A stretch of 32,000 nt of DNA from Candidatus Helarchaeota ASGARD archaeon Hel_GB_B (GTDB taxonomy: Archaea > Asgardarchaeota > Lokiarchaeia > Helarchaeales > HEL-GB-B), in contig SUPR01000030.1 in the NCBI GenBank assembly GCA_005191425.1, positions 4,611 to 36,610 on the forward strand, in the 5' to 3' direction. Of the stretch, positions 12,388 to 23,185 are shown piece after piece. The notes below the pieces were generated by a model. That model was given only the letters and a program-made list of their open reading frames with translations. It ran no database searches and had not been told where the DNA came from. Every line of letters starts with the position of its first letter. Within the stretch, counting starts at the first letter, position 1. Both the position numbers and the translations under genes were made by a program.

Positions 12388-12530
12388 AGAAAAAGGGCAT
12401 AAAAATGTAAATAAATAAGGAAAAAAAGTACGAACAAAAAACAAATTTTTTAAAAAATAAACCAAGGTTTTAAGATAAAAGATAGTTTTAGATGGTATAA
12501 AAAAGGTAAACTAGAAATCAAGGGGAGTCG

Positions 12531-12723
12531 AGAAAATATATTTATGCAGAAGCGATAAGGCTCTTCCGTGTTCGGGATGGGTAACGGGTGTTTCCCTTCA
12601 CCTATGATCGTGATTAAAGTCACAACCATCCTAAGTTCCCATACACTCTCGTAGTATAGTACAGTTAGGACCGCGTGAAGGCTTAATTCGGCGTCTTATT
12701 ACTTCTTTTGCATTATATTTCCT
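12531..12723 (-). other. Processing stem around the 5S gene with outer canonical and inner relaxed bulge-helix-bulge motifs
   Basis: 5' arm AGGAAATATA-ATGC-AAA-AGAAGTAATAAG-AC-GCCG-AAT pairs with 3' arm CGGA-AGA-GC-CTTATCGCTTCT-GCAT-AAA-TATATTTTCT. Confidence 0.85.
12563..12686 (-). rRNA. rrf: 5S rRNA gene, circularly permuted: 3' half 12686-12620, linker 12619-12614, 5' half 12613-12563
   Basis: Minus strand: TTAAGCCTTCACGCGGTCCTAACTGTACTATACTACGAGAGTGTATGGGAACTTAGGATGGTTGTGA-CTTTAA-TCACGATCATAGGTGAAGGGAAACACCCGTTACCCATCCCGAACACGGAAG. The halves total 118 nt. Helices seen: I TCACGATC/GGTTGTGA, II GTGAAGG/CCTTCAC, TCCTAA/TTAGGA, and a GAGA tetraloop; the conserved CCCATCCCGAAC is present. 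Confidence 0.93.
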
Positions 12724-13254
12724 CAAACAGGAAATAAAACGATTTTAAAGGTGTATAGCTTAAATTTTAAGTTATAAATTAAATTAAGATTATAAATTAC
12801 CATAAATAATGAAATTTAAAGTTTTTCTATATAAAAATGAATTATGCAAATTTCAAGTGAAAATTAAATTTTTATGATCAAATGTACATTTTTAAGACAA
12901 ATAAAATAAAAAAAATAAATGGTAAAAGAAATTAATTGGAAAAATATATTAATTTTAGAAGTATTAATAAAAATAATTAATGGGATTTGGAAAACTCCAT
13001 AAATAAAAATAAATTAAGATTATTCGGGGTTAAAGAATTTTTAAAAGATAGATAAAGGCTATAAATATTAGGAAGTTTCAATAGAAATTGGAAAATAATT
13101 AGATAAAATTTAAATTTCACCAAAAAATATTAATGAATAAAAAAGTAAAAAAATTTAAATAAAATAGATTATATGAAAAAAAGAATTAATTTTTAAAAAC
13201 TTATGAAATAAATACTAAAAATCAATTGGTTAAAATAATTGGAGTAAAGTAATA

Positions 13255-16107: not shown

Positions 16108-19100
16108 CTAATCTTCAATAATTTTGTAATAACCTTCTTTTGGTTGATAAAGTACGCCATGCATTCTAAGAGTATTTAATTCTGATTCGACTTGTTCTTC
16201 CGAAATTCTAAGCCTACTGGCAGCTTCTTTAATCTCTTCAATCGAAACAGCTTGACCACCTTTTCTTTCTGTTAATTCTCGAATTAATTGATTAATTTGG
16301 TCTAAACGTCTTCTATGAGTAGTAGTGATACCCGTTTCTATTGCATCGATATCTGAGACACCAGTCTCCTGGTCAATCCCAACCTGTCCTAAAGAATAAG
16401 TCATTAATTGGATCACTGATTGAGCATCTTCAGCAGTTACTTCTTCATGTAATAAAACTTTAGCTCTTGCTTCAGCAAGTCGTATTAATGCCTCTAAATA
16501 TCGAGCTGTAATCGGAATTGGTGTCTCTGGATCTGCGCCCGCAATTCGAGTTTGTAAATAAAACTGTTTAATTACTTCTATTGCTTCTTTGGTTATTCGA
16601 GGTTTACAATTTTTCTTAGCATAATAGATATAATTTTTTAAAAGTTCATGATCAATTGGTGGTTCTTGGGGTGTTTCTTCAGAACTTAATATAAAATTTG
16701 CCATTCGTTCATCATTTGTAGGACTTGGTTGGTCCCTAATTAAAAATATTAAATCAAATCTCGATAAAATAGTCGGCGGTAATTTCTTAATATTCTCCGC
16801 AACTGTTTTATATGGGTCATATCTACCTTGAAATGGGTTGGCTGCAGCTAGAATTGACGTCCTTGAATTTAACGTAGCTATTATTCCTGCTTTTGCTATA
16901 CTGACCGTATTGTGCAATATGACACCGTGGCTAACAAAATTATGATTTGGTTCAATAGTTATATCATATACCCAAGGAGTAAAATATTCTTCTTCATTTT
17001 TAATTTTCTGAATATCAACAATTTTCAGAAATTTTATGTCTGATTTTATTAACTTTTGGACTGACTTTACTGAACCAATGGTTTTTTCGATTTTTTTAAT
17101 TAAAATATCGATGTTGTCCTTATTTAAACAATTGTCATTATTTTGGTTAATATTCTCAATTAATTCCGAATTTGGGATTAAGTTATTAACTATTAATGAA
17201 ATTTCTGGTTTCAAATTTAAATATGAACTGGATGAATAAGGTGTATTCAAAAGTTTTTTGAGTTTTTGCTGGATTTTGTAGAGTTTATTAACTGCCTCGT
17301 TTAATAATTTTAGAGCTAGCTCTTTTGTCATTTTAGGCTTGTTTATACCAGTAAATTTAGATAGTGTAGATGAATTTGAACAGATTTTTTCAGTAATTTT
17401 TGTGATTAAATTTTCAATAGGGACGGGAATTGTATCATATTTAAATTGGTCATAGAAAATATCTTTTAAAGCTGGAGTTTGAGGCTCTTTCTGGTCGAAC
17501 TGAAGAAATATTTCCTGGACAAATTTTTGAAGTGAGCATGGCGATATAAACAGTTTATGTCTTCTGTTCTCAAATTTGATATAGCTTGAAATACCTAATT
17601 TTAATAATAAATCTTGCAAATCTTCGCAAATTACTTTTTTCTGACACACAAAGTATATTTTTTGCTCAAAAATTTCTCCAATAGTCCTAAAAGTAGCGGT
17701 TAAAAAAGATTTGGCTATTTCTTTACTTGCACCCAGTATTTTTGATGGGACACGTTTATTATTATTATCCATTAATTCAGGAAAATTTATTTTGAACCAG
17801 TAATAGAGGTCATAAGAGTCATAATAGACTACTGTATAGTCAATCAGATTTAATTTCTGAATTGGTATTATTCCAAATAAATCATTTAAAAGCCGGGCGA
17901 CCTCATTTATTATATTTTTAGATAAATTTGAAAACTGAATTTGAGTTGAAATATCTGAATTTAAATTACCAGAAGTGAAAAAATGTCCAACAAGTTCAGC
18001 TACCTCTAATGTTAGGAGATTTGGCTCTTTTTTTACCTGTAATTTAGTTATAAAATTATGGTCTAACGCAATTGGTTTCGTAGAATTAGGTAAATAACGA
18101 GGGGCTGGTATATAATCACCTATTGAGCAATTTTCTGCTTTAACACAGTCTATATTGAGTCCATTTAATTTAAATACAGGGTGTTCTGGAGTAACAATTA
18201 TTGACCTACCATTTGAAAATTCTATCTTGTAAAAATTGCTTGGAGCTATATGTCGGCTTAATCTATTTATCCTACTTTTATAAATTTGTTCAAAATCTGT
18301 AGTATATAGTCCTATATCTTGAAATGGAAGTATTTCACAATTAATACCTTTGACCACTTCTTTTGGACGCGATTCAATTGCGTCATCAATGAATTCGCCA
18401 ATTTTAATTTTTCTTCCGTCAATAAGTAAAATTTCAGTATTTGGGTGGAAACATAGTTGTTCCATGGACTCATGAATAGAAATACGATCTTCGGGCCTCA
18501 TTTTATCAAATTCATCAATGGCAGCCAGACCTTGATCTGCTAATACGAGTACTCCTGCTTCAAGTGAGAGATTTCCTGTATCTTTATCTCTTAATACGCT
18601 CGCGGTTAAGCCAGCCGCACTTGTACCTTTACCACTTGTATATATCCCTCTTGGTGCTATTAATGCTGCACTTTTTAGGATTTGACTATTATGGAAAATT
18701 ACATGACCATTGGCAAGGATAAAATGGTTATTCTCAGTCCCTATATCATATACATATTCAAACTCATTTTCTAATTTAGTTATTGAAATAATTTTGTCCC
18801 AAAAAACATTTTTGTTTATTGAAGTTCCTAAAATCTTGGCATCTTGATACTTTTTATTTAAGTTATGAGTACATCTCTTTAAAGCCAGGATTGTTCCTAG
18901 ACATTCGGATAATACTTTTTGATTATTAAAATCAAGTAATTTAGGTTGAATAAATCTTTGAGGGATGGTACCTAAAGAAATACCCGTTCTATTTATTTCC
19001 GTGTCTAATAGATTAAGCTTATTATAAGAATAGACATGGTGTTCCCGCTTTACTCTCAAATATAAATTTTTTTGTTCTTTATTATTTATAAAATAACATA

Positions 19101-22247: not shown

Positions 22248-23185
22248 TTCCTCATTTAAATTAATTTCTAATTTAAATTTGTTTTAAAATATAGCATTAA
22301 AAAATTGTTTCCAATATTTTTCACTAGCAGATTATATAAAAATCTTTCTTCAAATATTTAGCCATTTTAGATGAAATGTATATTTTATGGGCATAAATAT
22401 CCATATAATTCTTCAAGTTATGCATGTTATATTCCGTCAAATTTCTAATATGAATTTGAAAATCATATATTATTCTTTTTTTTACTCAAACTTAAATTCT
22501 TTTTGGAGATTTTTAATTTTGCTTAATTATCGGGTTTTCTCCAATATTTTCAGAATAATTAGATGAATAGAGTAAAATGCTTTTATTTTTAAATTTTTTG
22601 TTTAAAAAATGATTTACTCTTACAAAATTTAATATATTTAATTGACAATAAATTATCAATAATTTAAGGAATAATTTCTTATAATTTTAATGGAAATTTT
22701 TAGATAAAAATTTAGAGTTAATAATAATTTCTTTTTTATTACTCAATTTTTATTTGGGATTTACAAAACAATTATTTTATAAAACCTATAAACTAATCCG
22801 GGGATTTTTATTGAACCTTCAAAACCCGCCTAATTGATTGATCTTTTAACAATTATTCAGGTGGAAATAATATTTTATATGCCTCTTTATATGTTAAATT
22901 AAATTCTTTAGCCACTAATTTTATAGCAGTTTTGAAGTCATTAGACTTTAGATATTCGTTAAATTTCAAAAGACATTTATTCCAAAATTCTTTATTTTTC
23001 TCCATATTCTAACTCATCATATCTCATTTTTCTTTTATACATGAAGTAAACATTAATTTAATAAAAATATAAAATATGTTAAATTATTTTATAAAATATG
23101 TTTAAATTATTTTTATTATAAGAAAATCTTTATTTTAGAATTATTATAAGTAGCTATCAATTGTATATTATTGGTGTAAATTAAC

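Follow-up and report, generated by a model that had tools for sequence, protein, structure and literature searches.

In circularly permuted tRNA genes the 3′ half precedes the 5′ half, and the transcript matures through a bulge-helix-bulge (BHB) motif at the junction and a circular intermediate. Archaeal EndA, the tRNA-splicing endonuclease, cuts a BHB after the second nucleotide of each bulge. Some permuted tRNA transcripts also carry an extra BHB intron and undergo two rounds of EndA cleavage. RNase P and tRNase Z make new ends by opening the tRNA circle again. Such genes are said to occur in Cyanidioschyzon merolae, as reportedly described by Soma et al. in 2007, and in Thermofilum pendens, reportedly by Chan et al. 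in 2011. The closest system to the one examined here is the signal recognition particle (SRP) RNA of Thermoproteus tenax and T. uzoniensis. Its gene is permuted, and the junction BHB, built from leader and trailer, is cleaved in vitro by the heterotetrameric EndA (Plagens et al. 2015, eLife, PMC4731332). RtcB was proposed to join the ends, and the functional product is a circle (PMC4731332). Here we describe a locus that probably encodes 5S ribosomal RNA (rRNA) in a comparable manner in the Asgard archaeon Candidatus Helarchaeota archaeon Hel_GB_B. It lies in a stretch of 32,000 nucleotides (nt) of contig SUPR01000030.1 (positions 4,611 to 36,610), referred to below as the window, whose own numbering is used throughout. 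Like the Thermoproteus SRP RNA, it combines an essential structured RNA, a permuted gene and a BHB at the junction. It differs in that the RNA is 5S rRNA, the arrangement is found across the Asgard phylum rather than in one genus, and two BHBs are stacked 21 nt apart on each strand; the system is also known here from sequence alone.

Swapped halves and a junction BHB are features that the locus has in common with permuted tRNA genes. Here, in contrast to those genes, a short capped helix links the native ends of 5S, and no signal for reopening can be recognised in it. A second comparison is with the processing stems of archaeal 16S and 23S rRNA, which carry a BHB that is cut by EndA and ligated to give circular pre-rRNAs, and mature 23S may itself be circular or permuted (PMC12918454, PMC7758197). 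The outer of the two motifs described here resembles the BHB of those stems. In contrast to 5S here, the 16S and 23S genes are colinear, circularisation is not needed to restore their order, and their stems as a rule carry a single BHB. According to a paper of 2026 on archaeal rRNA, 16S and 23S are subject to circularisation 'but not 5S rRNAs' (PMC12918454). Permuted 5S rRNAs with swapped halves and a loop-closed helix I are known from organelles (Valach et al. 2014, PMC4267664). The accessible part of that paper implies neither a BHB nor archaeal-type splicing machinery and does not speak of the permuted molecules being rejoined, which sets them apart from the present case. Our literature search found no permuted or circular 5S in archaea, nor a nested or second BHB at one.

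The permuted 5S gene and its junction motif

On the minus strand, from 12726 to 12528, leader and trailer form one long stem that carries two BHB motifs and encloses a circularly permuted 5S (Table 1). This region is a G+C-rich island (43–47% versus 15–20% in the flanks) situated between two plus-strand open reading frames. The encoded order is the 3′ two-thirds of 5S, a capped helix I and then the 5′ third. The Rfam family RF00001 matches the locus as two halves in reversed order, the 3′ part at 12706–12617 (19.9 bits) and the 5′ part at 12615–12515 (24.0 bits). Both halves fall short of the gathering score of 38; in a sister family, canonical 5S genes reach 65.5 and 58.4 bits. Neither Rfam at its gathering threshold nor ARAGORN detected anything in the window. 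No further RF00001 match was found across the 3.54-Mb assembly, which is 93.7% complete and lacks a 16S gene, so that an unassembled copy is possible. The single 5S-like locus of this genome, together with one permuted copy in each of the seven genomes of the order (below), counted in favour of a working gene. The leader is single-copy in the genome and is thus neither a repeated nor a mobile module. An origin of the leader as a leftover of tandem duplication was considered and rejected, since its strand is complementary, not identical, to the helix III strand of 5S.

Predicted products were obtained by applying the cut rule to both motifs. Cutting at the outer motif would release 12707–12542 (166 nt) and cutting at the inner motif, which lies at the 5S junction, would release 12686–12563 (124 nt). 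When re-ordered at helix I, the 124 nt are colinear with the canonical 5S of the sister family, and no insertion or deletion is present at the junction CACGGAAG↓UUAAGCC. If both bulges were cut one base earlier, the product would keep its length and differ in a single base.

The inner central helix of this genome contains three Watson-Crick G-C pairs and G12692·A12565. On the 5S side only U12685–A12569 can pair (h′ = 0 or 1, h and h′ being the flanking helices), so the motif has no second flanking helix and is relaxed rather than strict. A relaxed BHB was defined as a 4-bp helix with at least one 3-nt bulge (PMC4731332). Because the CGG of the 3′ strand is common to the inner BHB and to 5S helix III, the two pairings are mutually exclusive. 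An alternative inner register (CCGA/ACGG or CGCC/ACGG) was rejected for its poorer pairing and non-canonical junction.

Relatives were examined with a covariance model of the permuted 5S (R1), which was built after a DNA search. Exactly one full-length permuted 5S was found in each of the seven genomes that the order holds. R1 matched 135/151 genomes sampled from the class and 104/151 sampled from the phylum, and full-length matches of about 50 bits or more occurred in most families of both. Families with weak R1 matches only had canonical 5S genes where checked, and one sister family is canonical. Among the matches listed, the public contigs of archaea carry the names of metagenome-assembled genomes (MAGs) of Promethearchaeia/Promethearchaeota, Thorarchaeota and Jordarchaeia.

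A BHB occupies the same 5S junction throughout the order (7/7 genomes) and in the majority of the phylum's families. Twenty loci of the class were parsed by regular expression; a 4-bp helix with two 3-nt bulges stands at the junction in 20/20, and the helix is fully paired in 19. The excised length is 119–124 nt in 19/20 of these loci and 150 nt in L027, which has a 30-nt insert. Two automated censuses of the junction BHB in 66 loci undercounted it (40/66 and 31/66) because their anchors were poor, and the regular-expression parse and the model alignment were relied on instead.

The sequence of the inner central helix varies while pairing is kept. It is fully paired in the six other genomes of the order (UCCG/CGGA, GCCG/CGGU, GCCG/CGGC and GUCG/CGGC), and the covarying forms among the class loci also include CUGG/CCAG, CCGG/CCGG and CUGG/UCAG. 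In the alignment of the seven genomes 91.7% of cells pair, compared with about 35% when the partner is slid, and 0/500 shuffles reached the observed paired-cell percentage or covariation score. All eight pairs of the helix adjoining the inner BHB show two-sided compensatory changes. The sole unpaired central-helix cell is the G·A of this genome.

Three registers of the junction motif occur across the phylum, shifted by up to 2 nt relative to 5S. CGUG/CACG is cut GGA↓AGU, CCGG or CUGG is cut GAA↓GUU, and GCCG/CGGN, which is found only in this order, is cut AAG↓UUA. In the alignments, every register restores the canonical GGAAGUUAAG spacing in the joined product. The product rather than the cut site is conserved, which is what a cut-and-rejoin mechanism predicts. 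The inner BHB is ancient and is the conserved, essential one of the two.

Several observations were made on 5S genes in the relatives. Helix I covaries and is mostly capped by UUCG, UACG or a similar tetraloop. Some relatives have a longer extension hairpin on helix I; this genome has the hexaloop CUUUAA and the congener has UCCG. A one-contig 4.4-Mb genome of the sister family (G054, L211:293-1159) contains three identical tandem canonical 5S genes, about 375 nt apart and 64.5 bits each. A permuted gene that arises by duplication and loss classically starts from a tandem array of this kind. The 30-nt insert of L027 (L027:372-561, G019) lies in the helix IV/V arm of the permuted 5S and is common in the largest family, recurring in many class matches of about 173 nt. 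It is BHB-like (UGCA, AAA, GUGC ... GCAC, UGCA, GAA), and the cut rule would leave two extra A compared with relatives free of the insert. The insert may therefore represent an expansion hairpin rather than an intron. DATKTP010000169.1 (L088 = G002:C169), a contig labelled as a Deferrimicrobium MAG, also carries a permuted archaeal 5S of full length (107 bits). This public bacterial label looks wrong, as the reference taxonomy places the genome in this archaeal order.

The outer motif

The outer BHB lies 21 nt outward of the inner junction on each strand. It has the strict hBHBh′ form, with a 4-bp central helix, two opposed 3-nt bulges and helices on both sides. In the outer and inner motifs alike, each 3-nt bulge is placed 3′ of its own 4-bp helix strand. 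The outer helix of 10 bp, including one G·U, extends to 13 pairs (12726–12714 with 12540–12528). Inward of the motif is a 12-position helix (12706–12695 with 12548–12559) made of six pairs, an A·C mismatch at 12700/12554 and five pairs, and beyond it are A·C at 12694/12560 and C-G at 12693/12561. The first-pass annotation of the window had placed a canonical outer BHB and a relaxed inner one (GCCG/CGGA with AAU and AGA bulges) at this locus, and both were recovered to the base, with the outer helix lengthened from 10 to 13 bp. Its 166-nt and 124-nt products agree with the coordinate arithmetic, and its statement that the inner junction restores canonical 5S is borne out by the colinear alignment with the sister-family gene.

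The outer stem was also recovered by folding. An unconstrained minimum free energy (MFE) fold of 12735–12520 contained this stem together with its two AAA bulges (−64 kcal/mol, z = −3.97, 0/200 shuffles as good). A run of four A at 12709–12706 lets the 5′ bulge slip by one base; the MFE structure draws a 5-bp central helix, and the canonical 4-bp register is equal in energy. Constraining the fold to both BHBs cost only +4.0 kcal/mol here and +3.0 kcal/mol in the congener. Chance expectation was estimated from 60 Markov-1 randomisations of the window on both strands. BHB-like patterns with an outer helix of at least 10 and an inner helix of at least 6 arose 0.18 times per random 32-kb window. 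Among the BHB-like matches in the real window, the outer motif has the longest outer helix (13 pairs) and brackets the 5S.

The outer motif is narrowly distributed. Among 66 distinct permuted-5S loci, a strict hBHBh′ enclosing the 5S gave strong matches only in this genome (G000; h = 13 and h′ = 6) and its congener G001 (h = 10 and h′ = 16), and the remaining loci gave weak AT-rich matches. In the five other genomes of the order the junction BHB is present and a strict second BHB enclosing the 5S was not found; the same was true of the other loci checked in the phylum. A metagenome scan with a 20-base conserved pattern found no third member of the genus; of its two matches, one was a contig that does not differ from the congener and the other arose by chance.

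Comparison of the two species revealed changes that preserve the outer motif. The central helix is AUGC/GCAU here and GUAC/GUAC in G001, which amounts to two pair-preserving double substitutions affecting 2/4 pairs. The bulges change from AAA to AAU (5′) and from AAA to AUA (3′), and both are still 3 nt. The flanking helices are almost unchanged, with one G·U of the outer helix replaced by A-U in G001. All 14 positions of the stem between the BHBs pair in G001, including both A·C sites, and one compensatory change is present; the inner G·A of this genome is U-A there. These substitutions, in a comparison of two sequences, are good qualitative evidence that the outer motif is under selection as a BHB. 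Conservation of the whole nested stem in relatives, as expected from the first-pass annotation, held in part. The inner motif and the adjoining helix covary in the seven genomes of the order; the outer motif was found only in the congener, with the two double substitutions.

Two other genomes have features that bear on the outer motif. In G005 (L012:417-607) the helix abutting the single junction BHB (GAGGAAAUAAUAU / AUAUUAUUUUCUC, then an AAA bulge) resembles the outer helix here (GAGGAAAUAUA / UAUAUUUUCUC, AAA bulge). The resemblance hints at insertion of the 21+21-nt spacer, along with its second BHB, between an ancestral helix and the junction, but as a 9-base match in AT-rich sequence it is no more than suggestive. 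In the leader/trailer stem of G004 (L010:1373-1561) a distorted, outer BHB-like element is situated between the junction helix and an 11-bp outer helix. It consists of GCAU/AUGC with UGA as its 5′ bulge, a 3′ bulge of 4 nt and, facing the 5′ bulge, two extra C. This element could be a decayed or a nascent second site.

Processing enzymes and the predicted course of maturation

Two EndA paralogs are encoded in the genome, each with both EndA Pfam domains. P0001 (192 amino acids, aa) is the catalytic subunit. It most resembles the catalytic chains in the heterotetrameric EndAs of Aeropyrum pernix, Sulfolobus tokodaii and Pyrobaculum aerophilum, and its best solved relatives are 3p1z_B, 3ajv_B, 2cv8 and 2zyz_B. 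It aligns with A. pernix 3p1z_B at E = 2.5e-42, and the two are identical through the GPGIDHAPFIVH and VRKKFV stretches. We take these stretches to hold the catalytic His and Lys, and the Tyr to lie just before, in FAVY. The alignment is ungapped at about residues 47–59, where the crenarchaea-specific loop maps roughly; this loop is D34–A46 in P. aerophilum EndA (PMC2724299). P0002 (198 aa) has Ala aligned with the catalytic His of 5x89 and is probably the structural subunit. On the basis of these alignments, EndA here is assigned to the two-subunit, crenarchaeal-type (αβ)2 class, the tetramer itself being predicted. Heterotetrameric EndAs have been described as the most relaxed in BHB recognition (PMC4731332). 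RtcB is also encoded (568 bits). The presence of P0001, P0002 and RtcB agrees, at the level of gene content, with the broad-specificity EndA that had been predicted for the relaxed inner site.

We propose that leader and trailer would pair into one stem and that a BHB would form where the stem meets 5S. The two-subunit EndA would cut after the second base of each inner bulge, and RtcB would join G12563 to U12686, giving the canonical loop B/helix III sequence in an RNA of 124 nt. This product is most likely a closed ring. The outer BHB would serve as an extra EndA site that frees a module of 5S plus spacer from the flanks. If the outer site were cut first, the result would be a 166-nt circle with a hairpin of the 21+21-nt spacer, formally an intron, and a second round would remove the 42-nt piece. 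If the inner site were cut first, the 124-nt RNA would be freed directly. The 166-nt circle is predicted to fold as the 5S helices plus a hairpin.

Stepwise processing, outer site before inner, had been predicted at first pass, and it is not supported as a necessity. In relatives the junction BHB suffices, and the same 124-nt product would result whichever site is cut first or if both are cut at once. Since the inner motif has an identical structure in the linear precursor and in the 166-nt circle, prior circularisation would bring no structural gain. The inner 3′ strand is moreover transcribed earlier than the outer 3′ strand. Together, these two features mean that the sequence enforces no outer-then-inner order, and a fixed order is unnecessary.

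The balance of evidence leans towards the locus being the working 5S rRNA gene of an Asgard archaeon (Loki/Hel class), encoded circularly permuted and matured by cutting and joining at the junction BHB, with the outer BHB as a genuine extra EndA site. Several points weigh against this reading. BHB-like shapes are not rare in AT-rich DNA; with h of at least 8 and h′ of at least 5, 3.7 arose per random 32-kb window. Because loose shapes are common by chance, shape alone is weak evidence and the case rests on position and on the relatives. The outer BHB is represented by two closely related sequences, and a shuffle control is powerless with two rows. The inner helix has a G·A in this genome alone within the order, lacks a flanking helix on the 5S side and competes with 5S helix III. 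A transcription start downstream of about 12717 would leave the outer helix too short. Finally, the 5S RNA could stay nicked or be reopened elsewhere rather than form a closed ring.

The outer element might be no processing site at all. It would then be an irregularity in a stem that stabilises the precursor, common to the two species by recent divergence, and the inner BHB would be the only site used. The presence of the outer motif in only 2/66 distinct loci, both of one genus, fits such an explanation, as does the fact that all other lineages manage with the junction BHB alone; chance patterns arise in this AT-rich DNA, and two sequences lack statistical power. We nevertheless consider it unlikely, as 4/8 bases of the outer 4-bp helix differ between the species with all pairs kept and the flanking helices almost unchanged, and both outer bulges are exactly 3 nt despite their change in sequence. 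It is moreover a textbook BHB of the strict kind, flanked by a long helix on either side, and chance would produce only 0.18 of these per window. The converse possibility, that only the outer BHB is used here and the inner one is weakened by its G·A, is highly improbable. The mature RNA would be a 166-nt circle with a 42-nt extra hairpin at loop B/helix III. On paper the outer motif is the better substrate, no other genome of the order has a mismatch in the inner central helix, and the 166-nt circle does fold into the 5S helices plus a hairpin. Against this, neither the inner bulges nor the three G-C pairs are disrupted, the congener combines the outer motif with a perfect inner one, and one-mismatch central helices recur in other lineages of the phylum. 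The two-subunit crenarchaeal-type EndA predicted from the genome belongs to the class with the most relaxed BHB recognition (PMC4731332), and none of the other 65 loci has a 42-nt insert at this conserved protein-binding region of 5S.

A further question is whether the cut ends are rejoined. EndA might cut without religation, leaving a linear permuted 5S with its ends in loop B and a loop-closed helix I, or a circle might be recut elsewhere. Permuted linear 5S rRNAs are reported for some organelles in the accessible part of one study (PMC4267664), and a nick at loop B might be tolerated once the RNA is folded and protein-bound. Cutting without rejoining is nonetheless quite unlikely. RtcB is encoded in the genome, and the cut positions shift by 2 nt or less between lineages yet every canonical junction base is kept, which fits a rejoined backbone best. 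Helix I is mostly capped by a tetraloop, unlike a reopening site; these stable caps and the covariation of helix I in relatives argue against reopening there. The Thermoproteus SRP RNA, made likewise, is a functional circle (PMC4731332). With both BHBs read as EndA sites on a rejoined RNA, a wider proposal can be offered tentatively. In most Asgard archaea the 5S rRNA of the ribosome may be a covalently closed circle made from a back-to-front gene by the tRNA-splicing enzymes. This genus may add a 42-nt intron-like spacer bounded by a second BHB, with two EndA/RtcB events on one rRNA transcript and release of a 42-nt circle.

Features of the locus and significance of the arrangement

Table 1. 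Features of the permuted 5S locus, all on the minus strand, in window coordinates
Feature	Position (strand)	Sequence, pairing or predicted cut	Basis or remark
Outer helix h, 5′ strand (leader)	12714..12726 (−)	AGGAAAUAUA = 12723-12714, plus 3 more pairs	sequence, fold
Outer central helix, 5′ strand	12710..12713 (−)	AUGC; pairs with 12547-12544	
Outer 5′ bulge	12707..12709 (−)	AAA; predicted EndA cut 12708/12707	textbook BHB rule
Stem between BHBs, 5′ strand (h′ of outer, h of inner motif)	12693..12706 (−)	14 positions, two A·C mismatches	
Inner central helix, 5′ strand	12689..12692 (−)	GCCG; pairs with 12568-12565	
Inner 5′ bulge	12686..12688 (−)	AAU; predicted cut 12687/12686	U12686 first retained base
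5S 3′ part	12620..12686 (−)	loop B/helix II 3′ strand, helices V and IV, helix I 3′ strand	Rfam half-match, model R1, alignment to canonical 5S
Hexaloop linking the normal 3′ and 5′ ends of 5S	12614..12619 (−)	CUUUAA; closes helix I	sequence, fold
5S 5′ part	12563..12613 (−)	helix I 5′ strand, loop A, helix II 5′ strand, helix III, loop C	Rfam half-match, alignment
Inner central helix, 3′ strand	12565..12568 (−)	CGGA; pairs with 12692-12689	CGG also 3′ strand of 5S helix III
Inner 3′ bulge	12562..12564 (−)	AGA; predicted cut 12563/12562	G12563 last retained base
Stem between BHBs, 3′ strand	12548..12561 (−)		covariation in order, congener comparison
Outer central helix, 3′ strand	12544..12547 (−)	GCAU; pairs with 12713-12710	
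Outer 3′ bulge	12541..12543 (−)	AAA; predicted cut 12542/12541	textbook BHB rule
Outer helix h, 3′ strand (trailer)	12528..12540 (−)	UAUAUUUUCU = 12540-12531	sequence, fold, congener
A/T-rich box upstream of leader, possible archaeal TATA element	12742..12749 (−)	UUUAAAAU	consensus-type match ending at 12742; putative
Six-U run about 25 nt beyond stem, possible archaeal termination signal	12499..12504 (−)		sequence; putative

TATA-like boxes such as the candidate upstream of the leader are common in the flanks of the locus, where G+C is 15–20%. Two further strict BHB-shaped patterns are present in the window, at 17036–17250 on the plus strand (h 9, h′ 8) and at 22294–22100 on the minus strand (h 11, h′ 5), which is within the chance number of 3.7 per window. 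DNA of this genome is present in sequencing runs from hydrothermal vents and marine sediment. One contig from a DNA run, possibly of the source sample, matches 12555–12800 without a difference, and the other three of the four best runs match only the conserved 5S core of other organisms. Elsewhere in the genome is a divergent methyl-coenzyme M reductase alpha-like gene (G000:C103:30835-31227, L224; 36 bits, 609-aa frame), which fits an alkane-oxidising, Helarchaeales-type Asgard archaeon.

The permuted layout would account for the absence of a 5S gene from the output of standard tools on these genomes, and Asgard genomes call for a permuted 5S model in rRNA annotation pipelines. The double motif is a natural experiment in which EndA would choose between a strict and a relaxed site on one stem. 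It may also be a snapshot of how a BHB-bounded spacer or intron originates at an existing splice junction. 5S rRNA is universal. If the proposed maturation is true, a normal 5S would arise only after cutting and rejoining, and the archaeal phylum nearest to eukaryotes would need EndA and RtcB for the biogenesis of its ribosomes.

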